UHGV virus genome: UHGV-0038384
DNA: 11,815 nt
Source: a virus
Strand: one strand, 5' to 3'
The first letter of the stretch is position 1, and each line of letters starts with the position of its first letter. Position numbers and translations under genes: made by a program. The notes beneath the pieces are model-generated. The model was given only the letters and a program-made list of their open reading frames with translations. It had not been told where the DNA came from and did not search any database. Shown one piece after another: positions 50-10,147 of the stretch.

Positions 50-847
50 ATGCACCAATCTGGTTCTGTTTCTCTTTGTCGTTCCGCAATATCTGTTCTG
101 GTGGCTACAGCGTTATATTCACCCATAGCATTGGCATCAACTGTTGAGTATGGTGAGACAGTTGATGGTGTTGTTCTGGAAAAAGATATCCAGCTGGTTT
201 ATGGGGCCGCCAATAATACGAAAATCAATCCTGGCGGAGAACAGCATATATAAGAATTTGGTGTAAGTAGTAATACTGAAATTAACGGGGGATATCAGTA
301 CATTGAAATAAATGGCACCGCAGAATACTCAGTATTAAATGATGGTTATCAAATTGTTCAAATGGGTGGCGCGGTAAACCAGACTACGATCAATAATGGA
401 GTGCTACAGGTTTATGGCGCGGCGACTGATCCCACGATTAAAGGAGGGCGCGGTGATGCGGCATTTACGTTGGGCAATGCCGGAAGCGTTGTTGATATCA
501 GTACGTATGAATATACCTTGCTGGATAATGGCAACCATAGCTGGAGTCTCGCAGAGAATCGCGTACAAATGCCCCCTTCAACCACGGATGTGCTGAATAT
601 GGCGGCAGCACAACCGCTGGTATTTGATGCAGAACTGGACACCGTGCGTGGGCGTCTTGGTAGCGTAAAAGGCGTTAATTACGATACGGCGATGTGGAGT
701 TCGGTAATTAACAGCCGCAACAACGTGAACACTGATGCGGGAGCTGGCTTTGAGCAAACATTGACGGGCCTGACGCTCGGTATCGACAGCCGTTTCTCCC
801 GTGAAGAAAGCAGCACAACTCAGGCGGGTGTGGTCTGGACGTTCTGA
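50..847 (+). pseudogene. Autotransporter (AIDA/Ag43-like) adhesin remnant: signal peptide, a few passenger repeats and the start of the beta-domain, interrupted by an in-frame TAA at 251-253
   Basis: ORFs 50..253 and 362..847 are in the same frame with no other stop between them. N-terminus has a signal-peptide-like segment (SAISVLVATALYSPIALA). Passenger-type repeats (LVYGAANNTKINPGGEQHI, GAVNQTTINNGVLQVYGAAT). An autochaperone/barrel-start-like motif (ELDTVRGRLGS...GAGFEQTLTGLTLGID) and an aromatic C-terminus (VVWTF). About 265 codons versus roughly 1000 for intact family members. Confidence 0.55.
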
Positions 848-1697: not shown

Positions 1698-1979
1698 TTA
1701 CGTACGCAGTCGTTCCGGCTTCTTCCAGTGGTACGTTATTTTCTCCTTCTCCCGATACATCTCCACGCGGCGACGGTAGGCCAGCAACTCAAGAACTCTG
1801 GTTCGTATGTTGCGCATATCCACGCCATTAAGTTCTATACCATCACGGCGCATCACCTCAGCAACAACACGCACATAATTTTCAGCGGTCACGCTGTCCG
1901 GCTGTGTGGCCTGTTCGTCATGCTGCTGGCTGATTCCGGTAACGCGGCGGATTAATCCCAGTAGTTCGGCTTCTGTCAT
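1698..1979 (-). CDS. Hypothetical 93-aa protein; first gene on the minus strand downstream of the cosB-like segment
   Basis: ATG at 1979 preceded by a G-run Shine-Dalgarno (GGGGG, about 5 nt upstream); charged, helical-looking translation; no family recognised. Confidence 0.45.
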   Translation of the reverse strand: MTEAELLGLIRRVTGISQQHDEQATQPDSVTAENYVRVVAEVMRRDGIELNGVDMRNIRTRVLELLAYRRRVEMYREKEKITYHWKKPERLRT

Positions 1980-2013
1980 TGTGCCCCCATCGCTCTGATA
2001 GTCTGGTGTCGTC

Positions 2014-2059
2014 GGGTCCTTCCTGGAATTATGGCCCGTTACGGGGCGGCGACCTCGCG
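2014..2059 (+). other. Lambda-type cos site copy A (cosQ-like plus cosN), plus orientation, without adjacent R-site repeats
   Basis: GGGTCCTTCCTGGAATTATGGCCCGTTACGGGGCGGCGACCTCGCG; contains the lambda cohesive-end 12-mer GGGCGGCGACCT at 2044-2055, followed by GGTTTTTCGCTATTTATGAGATTTT, which resembles the lambda left-end sequence as I recall it. Confidence 0.6.
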
Positions 2060-2410
2060 GTTTTTCGCTATTTATGAGATTTTTTGAGGGGGTGGTTGTT
2101 GTTTAATTGTTTGGTATATCTAATTGATAAGTAAGGTAAAAATAAAATAAATACAACAACCTTACGATGTATTTTGATGTCATTAATGTGAAAAAATTCA
2201 ATGATATCAAATGGTTTTGTAAAAACACATGGTTGTTGTATCGCGTATTTGATGGCGTAACAGAAAGTGATTTTTAACTTTACCGCTCTGTAACTACGGA
2301 TTATTCCATGCTGGCACGGAGAACGGCTACGGCATGACGCCACCCAGCCTATACAGAACAGTAAAGCCGATAAATTGTTAATCACGCGCAGCAATGCGTG
2401 TGATTTTTGC

Positions 2411-2563
2411 ACACTTCCGGTTAACGGGTACGATGTCCGGTTTTAGTGTCTGTTTTTTGCGCATGTCCGGTTCATAGAAAGCATGTTTTTATATTTTTCA
2501 TATGGTTAACTTGCAGAGAAACCGGACATGGATCCCGGAAAATTTTCATAAATAGTGAAAACG
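2411..2563 (-). promoter_or_regulatory. cosB-like segment with three ATGTCCGGTT repeats (candidate small-terminase binding sites) and AT-rich spacers
   Basis: ATGTCCGGTT at 2433-2442 and 2463-2472; its reverse complement at 2520-2529. Minus strand 2563 to 2535 reads CGTTTTCACTATTTATGAAAATTTTCCGG. The arrangement relative to cos copy B resembles lambda R3-I1-R2-R1. Confidence 0.45.
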
Positions 2564-2609
2564 CGCGAGGTCGCCGCCCCGTAACGGGTCCATATGCCGG
2601 AAAGGACCC
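2564..2609 (-). other. Lambda-type cos site copy B (cosQ-like plus cosN), minus orientation, contiguous with the cosB-like segment
   Basis: Reverse complement reads GGGTCCTTTCCGGCATATGGACCCGTTACGGGGCGGCGACCTCGCG. The 25 bp at 2564-2588 are an exact inverted copy of 2035-2059. The cohesive-end 12-mer complement is at 2568-2579. Confidence 0.65.
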
Positions 2610-2611
2610 GT

Positions 2612-2635
2612 AAAAAAAAGCCGGATTTCTCCGGC
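2612..2635 (-). terminator. Rho-independent terminator ending the capsid operon
   Basis: On the minus strand: stem GCCGGA, loop GAAA, stem TCCGGC, then T8; lies just after the stop of the 137-aa gene. Confidence 0.6.
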
Positions 2636-2641
2636 CTTGTC

Positions 2642-3055
2642 TCAGATGGTTTTCAGTATGTGATCGATGTCGCCGTCATCGCCCTGGTTTCTGCCATCGT
2701 ATGCCATGCCAGCTGATACGGCTTGCGGGCTGTGCATGTCCATAAAGTTTTCAAAGGCTGCGGTAAGCTCTGGTGCAACCTTTGGGCGCTCCTGCTCTAT
2801 GGTCATGTTCAGGATTTCACGAGCATTATCGACGCTAATACATGGCACGTTTGCCATTGCACGTAACAGCGGCTGATAGTCGTTATGTTCATGAAGCGCC
2901 ATAATCGCATCAGCGCGCGGCTTGTCCTGTTCTTCCAGTTTGTTGAGTTGATATACGGCCTCGTAGGTTGATAACCCTCTGTCAGCCATTGCCCGCGCTT
3001 CGGCTTTAAATTTACTCGCCAGCGGTAGCGCCATGATGCTTTCATTCGTTGCCAT
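2642..3055 (-). CDS. Hypothetical 137-aa acidic protein, last gene of the capsid operon next to cos
   Basis: ATG at 3055 with an AGGGGGA Shine-Dalgarno 5-6 nt upstream; starts 12 nt after the D-like stop; no family recognised. Confidence 0.5.
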   Translation of the reverse strand: MATNESIMALPLASKFKAEARAMADRGLSTYEAVYQLNKLEEQDKPRADAIMALHEHNDYQPLLRAMANVPCISVDNAREILNMTIEQERPKVAPELTAAFENFMDMHSPQAVSAGMAYDGRNQGDDGDIDHILKTI

Positions 3056-3067
3056 CGTTCCCCCTGC

Positions 3068-3403
3068 TTATCGGGCCAGCGGCTGAACGGATACGCCAGA
3101 ACCCGCAAAGGCGGCGCATTTTTTCGCATCGGTGTCGACGCTCTCAGGCCAGTTAACGGCGGCGATATTGAATATCCCCGTCTTATAGCACTGTGCTGAT
3201 TTCTGCGTCGACGTGTCAACGGGGTACGAGGTCAGATAAACAGCCTTGCCAGATTCCTGACCATCCCACGGCTTAAACTCGCCATTGTCCGCCAGCATCA
3301 GCGGGGTAAATTCCTGAATAACGCCAGCATCAGCGGCAAAATGTACCAGCGTCGTTGATACCTGCTGACTGCCTGCAAATAACTCAATGTATGGAGTGTT
3401 CAT
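3068..3403 (-). CDS. Head decoration protein, lambda gpD family
   Basis: Motifs TPLMLADNG...WDG, YKTGIFNIAAVNWPES and KKCAAFAGSGVSV align with my recollection of lambda gpD (TPLMLD...WDG, YKSGTFRYEDVLWPEA, KKRTAFAGTAISIV). ATG at 3403 has a GGTGGA Shine-Dalgarno; an alternative GTG start lies at 3412. Confidence 0.75.
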   Translation of the reverse strand: MNTPYIELFAGSQQVSTTLVHFAADAGVIQEFTPLMLADNGEFKPWDGQESGKAVYLTSYPVDTSTQKSAQCYKTGIFNIAAVNWPESVDTDAKKCAAFAGSGVSVQPLAR

Positions 3404-3414
3404 AGAATCCACCG

Positions 3415-4470
3415 TTAACCAATTTTGACGGTAACAAATTTGCGAATATCTGCCGGAACAGGCTGCGGTGCGCTGTGTGTCTGCACGTACTCAATCGCCG
3501 GATCGCCGTCTTCAATCCAGTTTTTCGGGTAAAACATGTTTTGCGTTGCGCCCGTTCTTACCGCTTCCTGTTCCATAATCGCACCATAGGCCACCAGCCC
3601 TTTATTGTTGGTGTTGCCCAGGACCAGCAAATCAGGCTCAAGGAAATATTTTTCTGTGCCGTCGCTGTCAGTGTATTTGCCGGAATAGACGATAAGGGCC
3701 AGATCACCAAGATAGCCTTTAAAGCTCACCACTTCTCCCAGGTTTTTACATGCCAGCTCTGCGGCGGATTCTGAACCACGGGAGAGATCGTACAGTTCAC
3801 GGAATTTTTTAAAGCTGCGTAACATGCGCCATACATCAACGCCCATAATCATGACGTTTGCGGGGCAACCTGCCTGATCTGCGTATAGCTCAATGTCATA
3901 GATTGGGTCGTGTATGTCTTTGTCCTGCTCTGACCATTTTTTACCGTCGGCCTGCTCTATGATGTTTTTTTCCGGTATCTTCCAGTCGATTTCATAGCGC
4001 TCTATGCCTTCGCCCTCAATGATGTTTTTTCCGGTCGTTACCGCATTTACCGCCAGCCATTCCACGCGCGCTTTAATGGCGTTTATCTGGCGGCGCATGT
4101 TGCCAGTAATCAGGCGCATACGGCGGTAGGTAGGGTCGTTAAGCTGTGCTGGATCTTCTCCAGCCATGCGCATTATTGTTTTTAATGGATCGATTTCGTG
4201 TTTTGGCTTCATGTAGCCAGGGCGAATAATGCTTGTTTCGTACCCTTTATCGCGCTGAACCTGGCTACCCACCATAGGCGAACAAAACGCCGACATAGTG
4301 ACTTCTTCAATATCCAGGTTATCTAACATGATGTCCTGTGTGTTGAATGTCGCCACGTTCGGGAAAAACAGCGCGGTAAACAGCGGACTGAATTTAAATT
4401 CCGCAATATCCTCGCGATTCAGGTACGCAAAAAGCTGGTTAGTGTTAAGTGATATTGCTTTTACTGTCAT
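3415..4470 (-). CDS. Major capsid protein, lambda gpE family
   Basis: 351 aa. FKFSPLFTALFF, PGYMKPKHEIDP, WSEQDKDIHDPIYDIELYA and YPKNWIEDGDPA match lambda gpE as I recall it (FKFDPLFLRLFF, PGYVKPKHEVNP, WSKRDKSTYDPTDDIEAYA, YPKNWVTTGDPA). Start overlaps the upstream stop as TAATG. Confidence 0.85.
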   Translation of the reverse strand: MTVKAISLNTNQLFAYLNREDIAEFKFSPLFTALFFPNVATFNTQDIMLDNLDIEEVTMSAFCSPMVGSQVQRDKGYETSIIRPGYMKPKHEIDPLKTIMRMAGEDPAQLNDPTYRRMRLITGNMRRQINAIKARVEWLAVNAVTTGKNIIEGEGIERYEIDWKIPEKNIIEQADGKKWSEQDKDIHDPIYDIELYADQAGCPANVMIMGVDVWRMLRSFKKFRELYDLSRGSESAAELACKNLGEVVSFKGYLGDLALIVYSGKYTDSDGTEKYFLEPDLLVLGNTNNKGLVAYGAIMEQEAVRTGATQNMFYPKNWIEDGDPAIEYVQTHSAPQPVPADIRKFVTVKIG

Positions 4471-6171: not shown

Positions 6172-7920
6172 TTATAAAAACGCGTCACAATCATCAGTTG
6201 TAATTGCGTTGGTCTGCGTTACTCCCTTAACTCTCCGCGTAATATATTCATGTCCGTAAACTTTTGCCGCTGGCTTCATGGCCTTGCTGAACTCAGCCAC
6301 GTTTAGCGGTTTGCTCCTGCCTGCGTATGCCATAAACGCCAGATAGACGCGGTAAAGGCTGTTTCTGGTCGTGTACTTCACGGAATCGCCACCGCCACCC
6401 ATCATCAGGCCGCGCGCTTCCTCCAGAAAATTCAGGAACTGGCAAAACTCAATAACCGGATCCGTCTGTTGCTTTATCGCCAGTGCTTCATCACCGTCGC
6501 GCTGTTCCAGTAATAAAGCCCGTGCCTTTTCAGGGTCGGCAAAATTAGCCAGCAAGCGACGGATAATTACGGGGATTTCAGCCGCGACCTTCTCCGGCAA
6601 ATCCTTGTCTTTTTCGTCCTCCCTTACAATGTTGTCGAACCGGAAAATCACCCGACGGCGTGACACACCTCCGGCCCGCTCGGTGAATATCATCGGGTTA
6701 TTGTTGGTAGCCAGCACCACCGCCCTGATTACCGCCGTGAAACGCTTTTCATATTTCGGGTTAATTTCCACGGGGTCGCCGCCTGTGATTTTCTTGATGC
6801 CCGTTCCTTCGCCTGTATATTTCGGCTGGTCAGCCAGGACGATAAGACGACTCCCGACAACCTGCGCACGTCCACCAGCATCATCAAGCGATGTCATTTC
6901 AGCGCTTACCGTGTTCTGTTTCCCTGCCAGAAGGCTGGCTATGTGTGTGAATGTACTTTTACCGCTACCGCCCTCTCCGGTGGCCTCAATAAACATCTGC
7001 CAGTCGTACCGGTTCGCCATAATCATGTACAGCGCGGCACATATACGCATCATCTTGCGCGAGTCTTTTCCGGCTGCGTGCTCAAGCCATTTATGAAAGT
7101 TTGGCGCGTTATCGCGGATGTTCTCCCCTGGTGCTGGTGGCGTGTACTCAATGCCGTTGTTCGTGGTGATCCAGTTCTCCGGCGTGTGCGGGGAAAATTC
7201 CCCCGTTTTCAGGTCAAGCGCACCATTGGCGAACGGCAGCAAATCGCCGGACGGCTCGCCCATTGGTTCGGCAATAACTTTTAACGCTTCCACGGCGTTA
7301 TTGATTACGCGCTTGCTGAAAGTGGCCCTGTGCTCTGAATAGATCGCCACCATTTCGCGGCTAAGTTCCATTGTGCTGACCGGACACCATACCCCGCCGC
7401 GCCATACGTGAACGATTTCACTTTCCGGATGCACACAAACGCCATCAAATCGACCAGCAAGCATCTGTGCGCGCTCACTGTCTGCCATTTGTGCCAGTTG
7501 CGTATTTTTCTGCTCCGGCATGGTAAGCCCTGCGGCAATATTTTCACGCTCAGCATTCAGATAGCGCCGCCAGTTTTCACACTTCTGGACGTGCATTCCT
7601 TCGGGGTAAAAATTTGCGTCCTGAATATCTGCCGCCGCCAGCTTCTGACCAATCTTTTTGGTCTCCACCAAATCCAGTTCTCCGGCCTGGTACAGCCTTA
7701 CGCGTTTTTTTCCATCAGGAACAATTTGCAGTGCATCAAGTTCGGCAAGCTGATTTGGCCCAAGCCACACAGGAGGCACATTATCGCCGGATGCGGGGCC
7801 GTCCTGCTCCTGCCACTGTTTTGCATGTGCCCACGCATCACTACCCGCGAAAATAATCACCTCTGTGTCTTTGTGTTTTATTCCGCGTGGCTGTTTTTTT
7901 ACGTTCGGTGCCAGTTTCAT
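6172..7920 (-). CDS. Primase / replication initiator with P4-family (D5-like) NTPase-helicase domain
   Basis: 582 aa; Walker A motif EATGEGGSGKSTF and Walker B-like RLIVLADQ in the C-terminal half; start overlaps the upstream ORF stop (ATGA); iterons lie immediately downstream. Confidence 0.85.
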   Translation of the reverse strand: MKLAPNVKKQPRGIKHKDTEVIIFAGSDAWAHAKQWQEQDGPASGDNVPPVWLGPNQLAELDALQIVPDGKKRVRLYQAGELDLVETKKIGQKLAAADIQDANFYPEGMHVQKCENWRRYLNAERENIAAGLTMPEQKNTQLAQMADSERAQMLAGRFDGVCVHPESEIVHVWRGGVWCPVSTMELSREMVAIYSEHRATFSKRVINNAVEALKVIAEPMGEPSGDLLPFANGALDLKTGEFSPHTPENWITTNNGIEYTPPAPGENIRDNAPNFHKWLEHAAGKDSRKMMRICAALYMIMANRYDWQMFIEATGEGGSGKSTFTHIASLLAGKQNTVSAEMTSLDDAGGRAQVVGSRLIVLADQPKYTGEGTGIKKITGGDPVEINPKYEKRFTAVIRAVVLATNNNPMIFTERAGGVSRRRVIFRFDNIVREDEKDKDLPEKVAAEIPVIIRRLLANFADPEKARALLLEQRDGDEALAIKQQTDPVIEFCQFLNFLEEARGLMMGGGGDSVKYTTRNSLYRVYLAFMAYAGRSKPLNVAEFSKAMKPAAKVYGHEYITRRVKGVTQTNAITTDDCDAFL

Positions 7921-8216
7921 TTTTTACCCCTGAATACGTTAAGCATCTTTTTTATTTCCTGAATATTGGCGCGTGCTTTCTCCCTGCTGGTTGGAACGTT
8001 ACGCGGTACAGCCTGCACCAGAGAAAAATCACGGTCGAACTGATAAACAGGCATCACGCAATCATATTCGTAGCCTTCACGACGGTAGGTTACGCGCCGT
8101 TCCTCCACGCCCTTAATCATTACCGTGCCGCCGTACTGGTCGCGGTAAATATCACCGCGCATGAATTTAGTGCGAGTTTTGCCACTGGCAGTTAAGCCAG
8201 AATATTTAAGTTTCAT
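7917..8216 (-). CDS. Hypothetical 99-aa basic protein coupled to the primase gene
   Basis: ATG at 8216 with a GGAG Shine-Dalgarno; its stop overlaps the primase start; no family recognised. Confidence 0.55.
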   Translation of the reverse strand: MKLKYSGLTASGKTRTKFMRGDIYRDQYGGTVMIKGVEERRVTYRREGYEYDCVMPVYQFDRDFSLVQAVPRNVPTSREKARANIQEIKKMLNVFRGKK

Positions 8217-8221
8217 TATTT

Positions 8222-8449
8222 TTATTCTCCGGTATGGGGCGAGTTATTATTCTCGTGAATTGCCATCACTGTATTTAATTCATTAATAACAGGCGTTAAT
8301 AGCGTACGCACGGCAGAAAACATCATTGAATCAGATTCATCGCCACTTTCCGGCACATCAATTAACTTAAGTAGTAATGCGTCCATTTCCTTTGCGAGGA
8401 TTAATGCGTTTTCAGAATGAACAAGAACATCAAAGGGTATTTTATGCAT
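8222..8449 (-). CDS. Hypothetical 75-aa acidic protein
   Basis: ATG at 8449 preceded by GGGGGGGAG; ends 5 nt before the 99-aa gene start. The track's 109-aa version begins upstream inside the preceding repeat unit. Confidence 0.5.
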   Translation of the reverse strand: MHKIPFDVLVHSENALILAKEMDALLLKLIDVPESGDESDSMMFSAVRTLLTPVINELNTVMAIHENNNSPHTGE

Positions 8450-8612
8450 GACTCCCCCCCTGGCGAATACGGGCGACAAAAATAAGATGTGCGTGCGGCA
8501 ACTGGGCGCGGGCTTCGCGTTCAGTGGCTGCGGTAACGGTGAATATTGCAATGCTGTCTGTCAGGCACTGCATAAAGCGCCAGACAAAGTAAGGGCGTGC
8601 GGATACAGCCAT
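8442..8612 (-). CDS. Small repeated protein, unit 3 (56 aa), possibly Icd-like
   Basis: AGGAG Shine-Dalgarno plus ATG at 8612. Translation MAVSARPYFVWRFMQ...VTAATEREARAQLP...FVARIRQGGSHA shares motifs with unit 2. Icd-like assignment is from memory of the family and is uncertain. Confidence 0.35.
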   Translation of the reverse strand: MAVSARPYFVWRFMQCLTDSIAIFTVTAATEREARAQLPHAHLIFVARIRQGGSHA

Positions 8613-8898
8613 GTGAAAGGCTCCTACAGTAATTTTAAGGAGTCTCGCTACTACGCTGTCAAACATGGTGGCGAGACGTAACAGGGTTGACAGACTGGCA
8701 CTGTAGAGACCAGCGAGCGCAAAGGCTCCCCCGTTACGCCCCGCCATAATGCGGGTATGGGTAGGTTTACGGACACAAAAAAACCGCATATCGGAATGTA
8801 AGCGGCTGTCCGCTACAGTATTCAGGCTGTCAAACCCGGTCGCCATGTGGGCGACGGGGGAAGCATACAGCCCCGTGATAATTTTTTGCAAGCGGTTT

Positions 8899-9087
8899 TT
8901 ACGCATGATGTGACCCCTGACGAATACGAGCGGCAAATACAGCAACACAACCTGACGGGCAACGGCTACGCGCTTCGCGTTCTGTCCAGGCGGTTACGTG
9001 GATGATTTGAGATTCTGACGCGCCAAAGATGATAAAGCGCCAGATAAATGCGGTTTGAGAATGTACAAGGGTAGGGATAGTAGCCAT
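8899..9087 (-). CDS. Small repeated protein, unit 2 (62 aa), possibly Icd-like
   Basis: GAGGAGG Shine-Dalgarno 8 nt before ATG at 9087. Translation MATIPTLVHSQTAFIWRF...VTAWTEREARSRCP...FAARIRQGSHHA. Confidence 0.4.
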   Translation of the reverse strand: MATIPTLVHSQTAFIWRFIIFGASESQIIHVTAWTEREARSRCPSGCVAVFAARIRQGSHHA

Positions 9088-9456
9088 GTTGGCAGCCTCC
9101 TCAGTGTGGTTAAGATAACCGCCACGCAAAAGGCTAATTTCGCTGGTGGCGGACTGTACAGGGTTAGCCTTACCGGACACTGAAGAAACCGGCGCGGATT
9201 GCTCCGCCCCCGTACAGCCCACCATTGATAAGGTGTGACTATGCGGCACAAAAAAACACGCGGGGCGCGTGCTGTGCGCTTCAGTTGTTTTCAGGAGGCT
9301 AATCCCGACACCCGTTTTATGAGGTGCGCGGGAATCATAGCCATTTTTGCTGGTGGCGATCAAGCGGTTTTTTTCTCCGGCACTCAGTGCCAGAAAACGC
9401 CACACAAAGGCCGTTTGTGTGTGTACAAGGTGTGGTATATGATTTACGGCAACCAT
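9088..9456 (-). CDS. Small repeated protein, unit 1: N-terminal homologue with a degenerate tail, fused in frame to unit 2 with no stop of its own
   Basis: AGGAG Shine-Dalgarno plus ATG at 9456; MVAVNHIPHLVHTQTAFVWRFLALSAGE parallels the unit 2 N-terminus; the frame stays open to the unit 2 stop at 8899. Confidence 0.25.
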
Positions 9457-9536
9457 AACGGCTCCTAGTTTACGTTGTTGGTTAGAAGCCCCGTTACTGC
9501 TCCTACAGTGCGGGGCTTTGCTTTTTGTGTTGATTG

Positions 9537-9557
9537 TGTGTAATGTGTCATTACACA
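9537..9557. promoter_or_regulatory. Inverted repeat upstream of the Arc-like gene, candidate autoregulatory operator
   Basis: TGTGTAATG-N3-CATTACACA (9-bp arms) about 30 bp upstream of the GTG start at 9586. Confidence 0.35.
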
Positions 9558-9585
9558 TAAATACATTACATGAGGTGTAATTAAC

Positions 9586-9765
9586 GTGTCAACACACAAA
9601 AACGAAAGGCGTGGTAATCCTCCGTTCCAGTTCCGTTTAGATCCTGACTTACGGGAAAAGATGGAAAAGGCACAACAACAGGACGGCGATGATTCTCTTG
9701 CTGCCTGGATAAAGCGAATAATCCGCAAAGAATTACAGCAACGCGGCATAGAACCCAAAGGATAA
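9586..9765 (+). CDS. Arc/Mnt-type ribbon-helix-helix DNA-binding protein (59 aa, GTG start)
   Basis: Not in the ORF track (below its length cutoff). GAGGTG Shine-Dalgarno 8 nt before GTG. Translation VSTHKNERRGNPPFQFRLDPDLREKMEKAQQQDGDDSLAAWIKRIIRKELQQRGIEPKG fits the RHH pattern (P.F.FRL...LREK.......G.S......RI). Confidence 0.55.
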   Translation: MSTHKNERRGNPPFQFRLDPDLREKMEKAQQQDGDDSLAAWIKRIIRKELQQRGIEPKG

Positions 9766-10147
9766 AAACTATCAGCGCCGTGGTGTGAGGTACTCCGGCG
9801 CATTGCTTTACAGGCGCACACAATGACCAACGAAGAATCAACCGAAAAAACATCACCTGCACGAAAAAGACGACGCAGAAAGAAAGAGCATGAATCAGAA
9901 CGATTCGCGCCGTGTTCTTTTGCCCTTGAGAAGTACCTTAAAGAATACTCATCAAAGGAGAGAGCTTCGCAGTTATGGCAACGAACTGAACCAGACTGAT
10001 TGCATTGCCCACCAGCCTGATAGCGGCTATCATCCCCGTGCTTATGTTTGGGATCACACACACAAACAGCGCAGCGGGTTATCTGTTCAGAAAGACGGCT
10101 CCATATCGGGGCCGCTTTTTTCGTGTTTGTCATATCTGTGATACCCG

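Follow-up and report, generated by a model that had tools for sequence, protein, structure and literature searches.

The window analysed here is a stretch of viral DNA of 11,815 nt. The region described below is the immunity and control region of an integrated E. coli phage-satellite island, which carries genes for an integrase, an AlpA-type regulator, a P4-family primase and capsid proteins and is inserted at tRNA-Pro. A first-pass annotation of the sequence had described this region as a tandem triplication of small Icd-like ORFs on the minus strand, separated by unequal and possibly structured spacers. Three ATG codons with Shine–Dalgarno (SD) sequences were indeed found, at 9456 (AGGAG, 9466-9462), 9087 (GAGGAGG in 9107-9093) and 8612 (TAGGAG in 8631-8621), with start-to-start spacings of 369 and 475 nt, and units 1 and 2 are fused in frame within a single open ORF (8899..9558). 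The locus is, however, not a recent in-situ triplication: it consists of two complete P1/P4-type antisense-RNA immunity cassettes in series, plus the stump of a third Icd-like gene. The repeating unit is a whole regulatory cassette, composed of promoter, target RNA, terminator, antisense RNA, SD and icd, and not the ORF alone.

At the entry of the operon, a putative main promoter was read from the sequence at 9563..9592 on the minus strand (‒35 TTGACA, 9592-9587; ‒10, about 9568-9563), and an operator-like inverted repeat (9557-9537) lies just downstream of it. The promoter scan did not call this putative promoter; four related islands (L007, L009, L010 and L013) carry TTGAC(A/G)-17-TAnnnT promoters at the equivalent position, with island-specific repeats. 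On the plus strand, a divergently transcribed gene (9586..9765) encodes a 59-aa small regulator of the Arc-like/YlcI-YnfO type, as indicated by its matches to phrog_228 Arc-like repressor (E 2e-6) and to NCBIfam NF041551 YlcI_YnfO_N (E 5e-4, under the family cut-off); it is labelled as a hypothetical protein in L001, a locus 99.9% identical to this region. The 5′ leader of the operon contains a hairpin (9487..9517, minus strand) with the stem AGCCCCG ... CGGGGCU and a variable apical part. This hairpin is common to 11 related loci, islands without C4 included, and among these loci the stem co-varies and the loops differ.

Unit 1 (9373..9466, minus strand) comprises an SD (9466-9462) and the 5′ end of an Icd-like gene, 28 codons that start with the ATG at 9456. 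These 28 codons, MVAVNHIPHLVHTQTAFVWRFLALSAGE, are identical to the N-terminus of an intact 65-aa Icd-like protein in O157/O145/042 islands (L002/L009), and past 9373 they run into AAAAACCGCTTG, a sequence usually found after the icd stop codon. The 3′ part of the gene is deleted and the remainder is fused in frame to cassette 1. Judged from its sequence, unit 1 is therefore an internally deleted icd, the stump of a third Icd-like gene, in agreement with the partial decay suggested by the first-pass annotation. The three shared motifs and the Icd-like identity that had been assigned to all three units do not extend to unit 1, only the first 28 codons of which are Icd-like and which gave no match to NCBIfam NF033153 at E values up to 1.

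Cassette 1 starts with its own promoter on the minus strand (9334..9363; TTGATC, 18 nt, TATGAT), detected by the promoter scan with 9/12 matches. Transcription is predicted to start at about 9327, exactly where the isrK match begins, and both promoter hexamers are conserved in the type-1 cassettes of L003, L008, L016, L017 and L019, in which the spacer varies. The isrK-like target RNA (9251..9327, minus strand) matched Rfam RF01394 over its full length with 61.8 bits against a gathering threshold of 50 (E 1.5e-11). It contains a1 in a hairpin loop (9302-9296) and b1 (9285-9279), both assigned by pairing with the C4 RNA of the cassette, and an intrinsic terminator (9273-9251) called by the terminator scan. 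The antisense RNA C4#1 (9142..9229, minus strand) matched RF01695 at model positions 1-87 of 87 with 75.4 bits against a gathering threshold of 45 (E 1.2e-13), and its minimum-free-energy fold (‒47 kcal/mol) shows the canonical stem and two hairpins. The b′ element is the loop UUUCUUCAGUGU (RNA positions 42-53) and a′ is AAGGCUAA (RNA positions 59-66). The downstream targets (9093..9137, minus strand) were identified by complementarity and by covariation across nine cassettes: a2, UUAGCCUU (9137-9130), is in the loop of a hairpin (9153-9147/9125-9119) whose arms co-vary among cassettes (CCGCCAC/GTGGCGG vs CCACCGC/GCGGTGG), and b2, ACACUGAGGAGGCUG (9107-9093), covers the SD of unit 2.

For cassette 2, we infer from the sequence a promoter at 8862..8891 on the minus strand (TTGCAA, 18 nt, TATGCT; 8/12 matches), which was below the threshold of the promoter scan. 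Transcription from it is predicted to start at about 8855, where the second isrK match begins, and the homologous position in L016.2 reads TTGATC-18-TATGAT. The a1b1/isrK-like target RNA (8775..8868, minus strand) barely exceeded the gathering threshold of Rfam c4-a1b1 (RF03163; 46.8 vs 46.7 bits, E 2e-9), and its isrK score of 34.1 bits is under the gathering threshold of 50. This RNA contains a hairpin GUCGCC/GGCGAC (8855-8840), which is the inverted repeat TCGCCATGTGGGCGA already recorded at 8840-8854, followed by a1 (UUGACAG, 8833-8827) in a loop and b1 (UACUGUAG, 8820-8813), both assigned by pairing with C4#2. A weak terminator hairpin followed by U7 was read from the sequence at about 8806-8775; with its loop of 14 nt, it was not called by the terminator scan. 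The antisense RNA C4#2 (8664..8751, minus strand) matched RF01695 at model positions 1-87 of 87 with 69.1 bits against a gathering threshold of 45 (E 4.3e-12); its b′ is the loop UCUCUACAGUG and its a′ is CUGUCAA. The downstream targets (8621..8662, minus strand), supported by complementarity and covariation, are a2 (UUGACAG, 8662-8656), in the loop of the hairpin 8678-8672/8648-8642, and b2 (UACUGUAGGAG, 8631-8621), which covers the SD of unit 3. The repeated sequence pointed out before, CTGTCAAAC on the plus strand and GTTTGACAG on the minus strand, is thus present in two copies, at 8833-8827 and 8662-8656. The hairpin around a2 is the other inverted repeat listed there, GTCTCGC...GCGAGAC. 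With these covariance-model matches, the suggestion that the spacers encode structured RNAs was borne out. The operon leader hairpin (9517-9487) was also considered as a third target of C4#2 at the operon entry, its loop containing 10 nt complementary to the b′ loop of this RNA; this reading was unsupported, as L004 has an identical leader without any C4, and L017 has the same b′ type with another leader loop.

Units 2 (8899..9087) and 3 (8442..8612), both on the minus strand, encode Icd-like proteins of 62 and 56 aa, respectively. They matched NF033153 with 59.6 bits (E 2e-16) and 53.7 bits (E 1.6e-14) against a cut-off of 25; a P1-like Icd used as a control scored 52.3 bits. The two proteins are 48% identical and retain the conserved motifs. 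Since a tblastn search of phages with unit 2 gave only a single match, the homology to P1 at the Icd level was shown by direct comparison, in which unit 3 and the Icd of the P1-like phage RCS47 shared 49% identity (E 1e-11). To our knowledge, inhibition of host cell division is known for P1 Icd only. The dN/dS values were 0.16-0.38 for unit 2 against close relatives and 0.09-0.42 for unit 3, and all 18 of the 18 icd comparisons gave values below 1 (0.09-0.57); the Icd ORFs are under purifying selection. The stop codon of unit 2 (TAA, 8901-8899) is overlapped by an ATG in a different frame (8906-8904), and that of unit 3 by the ATG (8449-8447) of the next ORF.

Downstream of cassette 1 lies the second cassette, followed by the genes placed for cassette control (6172..8449, minus strand), which were assigned from the PGAP annotation of L001: a 75-aa ORF (8449-8222), a DUF4222 protein (8216-7917) and the P4-family primase (7920-6172). 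The primase, on the same strand as the cassettes and approximately 0.5 kb downstream, matched TIGR01613 with 111.7 bits (cut-off, 108.7), and the downstream genes also matched phrog_2196 and phrog_285. No Ant/KilA homologue was found among the genes downstream of the cassettes by PGAP, NCBIfam or PHROG matches, and the locus thus differs from a P1-type immI operon, in which a translationally coupled antirepressor gene (ant) is under the control of the cassette. As in P4-type immunity, C4 RNAs, here two, with their flanking sites are located in the leader of a P4-family primase operon. None of the proteins of the region matched a PADLOC defence-system model.

We then analysed the recognition sequences of the antisense RNAs. 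In both cassettes, a′ and b′ have exact complementarities of 7-15 nt to a1 and b1 upstream and to a2 and b2 downstream. Across 16 related cassettes, the three-way a1/a′/a2 and b1/b′/b2 pairings co-vary, with 86-100% of the positions paired, compared with 18-55% in slid controls. For the type-1 cassettes, the a1:a′ and b1:b′ pairings were maintained in 100% of 126 cells, with double changes in 11 of 14 pairs, and the a′:a2 and b′:b2 pairings in 86%, with double changes in 12 of 20 pairs (slid controls, 31-55%). For the type-2 cassettes, 98% were paired (slid controls, 18-45%), and variable columns were concentrated in the recognition elements (27/51 inside vs 33/213 outside, p = 1e-7). The hypervariable co-varying positions are RNA recognition elements, not ORFs. 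Cassettes 1 and 2 carry different recognition sequences, and the 18 cassettes examined included 7 a′ variants and 13 b′ variants. Using crude RNAduplex energies of 30-nt recognition segments, the cognate pairing was favoured at three of the four target regions; at the SD-proximal a2b2 region of cassette 2, cognate and non-cognate pairings tied (‒21.0 vs ‒21.2 kcal/mol), the test being too crude to judge cross-talk. In a search for helper phages, the exact a′ plus b′ segments of either C4 RNA were not found in 50,697 phage records. In both C4 copies the closing stem begins with GG and, at its 3′ end, terminates in CCACCA, which are sequence hints of RNase P processing.

The two cassettes are collinear end to end and only 56% identical. 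Together with the difference in their recognition codes, this low identity indicates that they are old, diverged copies, and a recent duplication in situ is ruled out. They belong to two lineages, cassette 2 being P1-immI-like and cassette 1 Stx-phage/isrK-like, and in phages each lineage also occurs as a lone cassette. A query of 566 nt spanning C4#1 to C4#2 was covered to at least 80%, at 76-100% identity, in 22 of 5,426 E. coli genomes. At least 22 of these genomes have arrays of two or three cassettes, and the 329 phage records with matches contain no such array; a GTDB genome scan with the Icd alignment gave only three loci, its search patterns being too specific. The copy number at this position varies among related islands, some with one cassette or none and others with arrays of two (L017, L018 and L019) or three (L016), in which a′ and b′ differ in every member. 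Because related islands manage with one cassette or none, the array is dispensable for island function.

These distribution data bear on an alternative explanation, namely, that the array is a neutral recombination scar of mosaic exchange, in which one cassette or neither matters and the array as such has no function. The rarity of arrays and the islands with a single or no cassette are in line with this explanation, as is the high mosaicism of the region, pieces of which were found in 1,393 genomes and the whole 1.6 kb in only 4. That L018.1 has a chimeric icd, and that icd is truncated in several different ways, likewise indicates frequent recombination at this gene. Evidence against a scar is that both cassettes retain all of their mutually complementary a/b sites, a C4 RNA well above threshold and an intact icd under purifying selection, and arrays persist at 76-100% sequence identity, with up to three members and always with distinct codes. 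The promoter and terminator of cassette 1 were called, while those of cassette 2 are weak and uncalled, and the overlapping ATG and the open frame were kept in six of six downstream cassettes examined. Taken together, we consider a neutral scar unlikely.

Of 18 island cassettes, 14 carry an Icd frame without stops along their full length; the 18 are related by descent and do not represent independent observations. The other frames contain 1-10 stops. In a shuffle test, the open frames gave P = 0.035 and 0.014, and the three phage cassettes checked have 3-5 in-frame stops each. An overlap of the ATGnnTAA type was observed at 15 of 18 icd stops, and in the six downstream cassettes mentioned above the frame is open into the next icd. 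The leader ATG of L008 is out of frame, and the open frame of L005 is shifted.

Since both RNA regions are crossed by open frames, the real products could be long Ash/Icd fusion proteins of 185 and 154 aa, the RNA motifs being secondary. Pfam Phage_ASH (PF10554), a family named after P4 ash, matched residues 40-122 of the unit 1 read-through product with 35.6 bits against a cut-off of 26; phrog_29966 spans the 185-aa product end to end (E 7e-114), and PGAP annotates a 154-aa Icd-like protein here. In addition, a preprint (10.1101/2023.04.06.535777) points to an ECOR61 prophage protein, Icd-like and with an extended N-terminus, as the likely cell-death effector, and the Gifsy-1 ORF over a C4-like RNA is translated (PMC4825925). 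Nevertheless, the variable sites of the extension are not in excess at third codon positions (31/31/19 and 51/47/50), its variation obeys RNA pairing rules, and the Rfam models match at full length. The absence of a codon-position excess, together with variation that follows RNA pairing, indicates that the extension is not conserved as a peptide, and fusion proteins as the principal products are accordingly improbable. The extension may still be translated, and the fusion proteins are better seen as a complement to the cassettes, through dual use of the same sequence, than as an alternative to them. The region matched by Phage_ASH is the translation of isrK#1 and C4#1; because its variation lacks a coding signature, the Ash 'family' mainly mirrors an RNA gene in which a reading frame has stayed open. 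Pfam Phage_ASH and several PHROG 'transcriptional regulators' are largely translations of these RNA genes, and so are the 'ash family' and long 'Icd-like' CDSs of PGAP, with consequences for annotation and for genetic screens that hit 'N-terminally extended Icd-like proteins'.

The idea, raised in the first-pass annotation, that a small effector or immunity factor was duplicated and diversified, under which the peptides would be the evolving specificity determinants, could account for three Icd-type starts in tandem and for the mere 48% identity of units 2 and 3, but it is highly improbable and largely refuted by dN/dS values below 1 in every comparison, by the retained motifs, by the location of the hypervariable positions in RNA recognition elements rather than ORFs, and by the descent of the units from two old cassette lineages, each also found singly in phages.

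We therefore return to the two antisense-RNA cassettes; that their parts are correctly identified and that they act in the manner of P1 and P4 is, taken jointly, probable. Each cassette comprises, in order, a sigma-70-like promoter of its own, an IsrK/SeqA-like leader with a1, b1 and terminator, the C4 RNA, the a2/b2 sites and the Icd-like ORF, the stop codon of which overlaps the start codon that follows. By analogy with P1, P4 and Gifsy-1, each C4 RNA would be cut from read-through transcripts by RNase P and would pair with its own a/b sites. This pairing would block Icd translation, and the ensuing polarity and termination would silence the primase operon in the quiescent island; the short IsrK-like RNA could serve as a competitor.

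P1 c4/P4 CI antisense-RNA immunity is the classic single-lock system. Because the codes of the two cassettes differ, the resident island could produce two trans-acting repressor RNAs and keep the operon under a double lock, and it would then repress incoming relatives belonging to either of two immunity types. With the Icd frame open through every cassette and the icd stops overlapping an ATG, ribosomes starting upstream could read through the terminator and C4 region, so that downstream cassettes would become transparent once the first gate opens. Double lock, multi-type immunity and ribosome read-through, as functions of the array, are possible, with at best an even chance of being correct. 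More tentatively, and less likely than not, the C4-type cassettes of satellites may represent modules that can be stacked in an open frame and that, with ribosome transit and trans-acting RNAs of their own, would provide multi-specific exclusion that is RNA-coded and collectable. If so, the chaining of overlapping stops and starts would mean that additional cassettes do not block induction in cis, and arrays of two or three cassettes with fast-diversifying a′/b′ would give the resident satellite immunity against several satellite or phage types. By stacking distinct codes before its replication genes, a satellite would have a modular means of making repression tighter and of extending cross-immunity among competing mobile elements. 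The 7 a′ and 13 b′ variants would constitute a natural set of orthogonal RNA–RNA recognition pairs, and translation through the sRNA gene would be a possible switch between repressor RNA and messenger.

Our search for literature on tandem C4 arrays or Icd-like genes in satellites yielded only the ECOR61 preprint and general C4/IsrK papers, its incomplete coverage making it weak evidence of novelty. The parts of the system are already known, and the stacked, heterospecific and frame-open arrangement appears to be undescribed. The closest counterpart of cassette 2 is the immI region of P1/P7 (a1 b1 - c4 - a2 b2 - icd - ant1/2). The C4 mechanism of a′/b′ pairing and RNase P processing has been described (PMC5320573), and the heteroimmunity of P1 and P7 rests, according to the summary given there, on a′/b′ specificity with matching changes in the targets (Citron and Schuster 1990, summarised in PMC5320573). 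Both window cassettes align collinearly with the a1b1-c4-icd region of RCS47, cassette 2 from promoter to icd. By BLAST, P1, D6 and RCS47 are 78-82% identical to cassette 2 over 190 nt (query 485-674), a match that takes in the greater part of C4#2 and the 3′ portion of the a1b1 region; in a MAFFT alignment, the C4 segment of RCS47 is 71% identical to that of cassette 2. Further similarities are the overlap of b2 with the icd SD, the overlap of the icd stop with the next start codon, and the specificity that resides in a′/b′ with targets changed to match. In contrast, immI is a single cassette in a phage, followed by an antirepressor, whereas the satellite island has two in series, the second followed by the replication operon (DUF4222 protein and P4-family primase); RCS47 has five in-frame stops across its RNA cassette, and the icd frame of the island is open throughout.

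Compared with P4 (PLE - seqA - CI RNA - seqC - kil ... alpha primase), the island is similar in position and logic: a C4/CI-type RNA lies in the leader of an operon leading to a P4-family primase, complementary sites are present on both sides of the RNA, and Phage_ASH matches the translated RNA region. P4 has one CI RNA, the island two C4 RNAs, and we know of no tandem heterospecific cassettes. Unlike P4, the island has major capsid and head decoration genes, and the P4 morphogenesis genes sid, psu and delta are absent from the 26 PGAP-annotated features of the matching locus. IsrK has been described as structurally homologous to P4 SeqA, and STnc1160, the processed RNA downstream of it, has been functionally compared to CI RNA (PMC4825925).

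Cassette 1 resembles the isrK - orf45 (STnc1160) - anrP locus of Gifsy-1 and the Stx phage loci in the order isrK then C4, a pair also annotated in Stx2 phage F039. In Gifsy-1, a short terminated RNA, a read-through mRNA, a translated ORF over the C4-like RNA and translational coupling have been shown experimentally (PMC4825925). These loci lack an Icd-like gene and have an antirepressor under cassette control, whereas the island has Icd-like genes and a replication operon in that place, and a P1-type cassette joins its cassette 1 in the stack.

Rfam scans of the region at 8442-9560 (minus strand) detected two full-length C4 antisense RNA genes, C4#1 at 9229-9142 (75.4 bits) and C4#2 at 8751-8664 (69.1 bits; gathering score 45 in both cases), preceded on the same strand by an isrK element at 9327-9251 (61.8 bits) and a c4-a1b1 element at 8868-8819 (46.8 bits), respectively. 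The spacers between the small reading frames, for which structured RNAs had been considered in the first-pass annotation, thus contain such RNAs. Alignment placed both repeat units (cassettes 1 and 2) and immI of the P1-like phage RCS47 on a single collinear plan: promoter, hairpins presenting the upstream target sites a1/b1, terminator, C4, the downstream target sites a2 and b2, the latter with the Shine-Dalgarno (SD) sequence, and icd. A promoter scan identified a promoter-like site in cassette 1 (TTGATC-18-TATGAT; 9363-9334, minus strand), with hexamers conserved and spacer variable among relatives, and with a predicted transcription start at the base where the isrK match begins. Its counterpart in cassette 2 (8891-8862, minus strand) is weaker, and both promoter and terminator of that cassette are weak. 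The Pfam Phage_ASH match in the read-through of unit 1, the first of three small reading frames, is the translated isrK/C4 RNA region. Translations of the RNA regions have been entered as 'proteins' in Pfam Phage_ASH, phrog_29966, phrog_3960, 995 and 821 (PHROG 'transcriptional regulator/repressor'), and a PGAP 'ash family protein' pseudogene and a 154-aa 'Icd-like' CDS are likewise translated isrK/a1b1 and C4 RNA; variation in these regions (9142-9372 and 8664-8903 in the window, minus strand; 9345-9683 and 9895-10359 in L001, the matching island of E. coli S1-CAM-02-A) carries no coding signature.

The sequence contains the three start codons with their SD sites, spaced 369 and 475 nt apart, the two inverted repeats and the repeated GTTTGACAG described previously, and units 1 and 2 are indeed fused in frame. 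The assignment of the peptides as Icd-like held for unit 2 (62 aa, E = 2e-16) and unit 3 (56 aa, E = 1.6e-14), which match NCBIfam NF033153 'Icd-like', unit 3 sharing 49% identity with Icd of RCS47. Unit 1 is Icd-like in its first 28 codons only, and the three motifs reported as common to all units do not extend to it. The same 28 codons, without a difference, begin the intact Icd-like gene at the head of the operon in islands of O157:H7, O145:H28 and 042; past 9373 the unit switches to AAAAACCGCTTG, which in other loci comes after the icd stop codon. Therefore, unit 1 is an icd gene with an internal deletion. A 222-aa open frame at 9465-10133 (minus strand) lies antisense to a small regulator gene; the homologous stretch is annotated by PGAP as 'Icd-like protein, incomplete' in three related loci (L002, L003 and L009), no CDS is annotated on that strand at the matching stretch of L001, and Rfam detected no C4 in the homologous stretch.

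Each C4 RNA is complementary to sites on both of its sides. The C4#1 junction AAGGCUAA is complementary to UUAGCCU(U) at 9302-9296 and 9137-9130, and its hairpin loop UUUCUUCAGUGU to ACUGAAG at 9285-9279 and to ACACUGAGGAGGCUG at 9107-9093, a site containing the unit 2 SD. Similarly, CUGUCAA of C4#2 is complementary to UUGACAG at 8833-8827 and 8662-8656, and the loop UCUCUACAGUG to UACUGUAG at 8820-8813 and to UACUGUAGGAG at 8631-8621, including the SD of unit 3. Since C4#2 pairs with both copies, the previously noted repeat CTGTCAAAC corresponds to the two a sites of cassette 2, a1 and a2. In the a1b1 element, the first hairpin is the one at 8840-8854, and the inverted repeat 8678/8642 forms a hairpin with a2 in its loop, using the 3' strand of C4#2; the cassette 1 counterpart of the latter co-varies between loci. 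Orthogonality at the SD-proximal site was not seen in simple energy estimates.

Using Rfam scans, we added 16 cassettes, from related islands of E. coli and E. albertii, to the two of the window. Since L011 duplicates L003 across the alignment and L018.1 duplicates L015, the aligned set consisted of nine type-1 and seven type-2 cassettes (resembling cassettes 1 and 2), which share descent. Among type-1 cassettes, pairing of the C4 recognition segments a' and b' with a1 and b1 was present in 100% of 126 cells, with two-sided changes at 11 of 14 pairs (slid controls, 31-55%), and pairing with a2 and b2 in 86% of cells, with two-sided changes at 12 of 20 pairs (36-49%). For type-2, the corresponding values were 98% and 7 of 15 pairs (18-41%) upstream, and 98% and 8 of 18 pairs (32-45%) downstream. 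In each comparison, 0 of 500 shuffles reached the score. Type-2 scaffolds had a mean identity of 93%, and variable columns were concentrated in the recognition elements (27/51 versus 33/213 elsewhere, p = 1e-7); the RNA code is therefore the specificity determinant that evolves. Diversifying duplication of the peptide, as proposed earlier, is contradicted by purifying selection on the Icd ORFs (dN/dS 0.09-0.57) and by the location of the variation in RNA recognition columns.

In 14 of the 18 island cassettes, the icd frame has no stop codon over the 330 nt 5' of the icd start; where this frame is open, the remaining two contain 3-10 and 1-8 stops, and dinucleotide shuffles gave P = 0.035 and 0.014 for the window's two cassettes. 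Variable sites by codon position numbered 31/31/19 and 51/47/50, without a third-position excess; the icd frame is thus kept open, without conservation of the encoded peptide. An ATG five bases upstream overlaps the icd stop in 15 of 18, and all six downstream cassettes of arrays are open from the stop-overlapping ATG into the next icd. P1-like and Stx-phage cassettes contain 3-5 in-frame stops, and the open frame across the cassette appears to be specific to islands.

A 5' leader hairpin (9487-9517, minus strand), followed by a conserved CUAACCA(A/C)CAACG, has a co-varying stem and a variable apical part, and occupies the same position in L002-L004, L007, L009-L013 and L019, both in islands that carry C4 cassettes and in islands that lack them. 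Similar to the a2-presenting hairpin, it could serve as an orphan target of a trans-acting RNA. The 10 nt over which the window's leader loop matches b' of C4#2 are not conserved in the two-cassette locus L017, and the match is probably coincidental. A divergent 59-aa Arc-like / YlcI-YnfO-type regulator (9586-9765, plus strand) faces the putative main promoter; the direct or inverted repeats around this promoter (9537-9592) are a different pair in each related island (TGTGTAATG/CATTACACA in the window, two copies of ATGGTAATTACC in L009), suggesting island-specific regulator-operator pairs.

Rfam detected no C4 in seven related loci, where icd directly follows the leader; seven related loci carry a single cassette, L017, L018 and L019 carry two, and L016 carries three. 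The 566 nt spanning C4#1 to C4#2 were at least 80% covered in 22 of 5,426 complete E. coli genomes (76-100% identity), C4-like sequence as such was present in 2,945, and none of 329 phage records matching the region covered both cassettes. Genomes with the exact code numbered 26 for C4#1, two for C4#2 and one for both together; no phage record had either. Within each array examined, no a' or b' is shared between members. The window's cassettes share just 56% identity: cassette 2 belongs to the P1-immI type, matching P1, D6 and RCS47 at 78-82% identity over query positions 485-674 (most of C4#2 included), and cassette 1 to the Stx-phage/Gifsy isrK-C4 type; recombination, not recent duplication, therefore assembled the array. 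Furthermore, the first icd of the operon is cut at different points, after about 46 codons and in frame in L019 (about 1513-1650), and earlier and out of frame in L008 (about 2439-2500), and the L018.1 icd (L018 1941-2114) joins a 56-aa-type N-terminus to a 62-aa-type C-terminus at the FVWRF motif; icd thus seems to be a recombination joint for cassette shuffling. In L016 (E. coli strain 48, deer), three tandem cassettes lie at 1700-3045 (C4 at 1801, 2279 and 2736); the scaffolds of cassettes 2 and 3 are almost the same, most differences falling in the six recognition elements, which looks like in situ duplication followed by code change. The P1-like phage vB_EcoM-673R5 (L022 2501-3734) carries a type-1 isrK-C4 match directly 5' of an Icd gene, followed by a Roi-type DNA-binding protein. 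This locus is close to pac and c1 and apart from the second match to the query in the same phage, so one phage genome can carry two unlinked cassettes.

An 11-kb island inserted at tRNA-Pro, between yejM and yejO, in E. coli S1-CAM-02-A is 99.9% identical to the window. Its gene order on the window's minus strand is integrase, AlpA-type HTH protein, the region under study, 75-aa ORF, DUF4222 protein, P4-family primase (TIGR01613, 111.7 bits), SSB, PerC-type regulator, major capsid protein and head decoration protein, which is the gene content of a PICI/P4-like phage satellite of enterobacteria. The major capsid (351 aa) and head decoration (114 aa) proteins (3068-4470, minus strand) are the sole virion genes by PGAP annotation of the matching locus, where no portal, protease or terminase is annotated from the capsid genes to the island end; such a partial capsid module is unusual for a satellite. 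At the left end (50-847, plus strand), ORFs containing autotransporter-like repeats correspond to the disrupted yejO autotransporter gene in the L001 annotation, that is, host sequence flanking the island.

The feature is real and well supported: the nature and layout of the parts, the complementarity of cognate sites, covariation throughout the family, purifying selection on icd and the location upstream of a P4-family primase operon are established, and the components are known, being already in Rfam and NCBIfam. Their arrangement in a satellite as a stacked, heterospecific and frame-open series is provisionally undescribed, within an incomplete coverage of the literature. By analogy with P1, P4 and Gifsy-1, C4 would be cut from read-through transcripts, its pairing at b2 would block Icd translation and silence downstream genes via polarity or termination, and a short IsrK-like RNA would act as a competitor. 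More speculatively, two codes could doubly lock the operon in cis and confer immunity to two types in trans, and the open frame could let ribosomes from 9456, or from the stop-overlapping ATGs, traverse the terminators and C4 genes, such that stacking might not prevent induction. In Gifsy-1, ribosomes translate the ORF that overlies a C4-like RNA, and this ORF is coupled to the following gene (PMC4825925), a result which the open frame of the island cassettes fits. In P4, the immunity region is flanked by regulatory genes on one side and by the primase operon on the other, and the window's cassettes occupy exactly that place.
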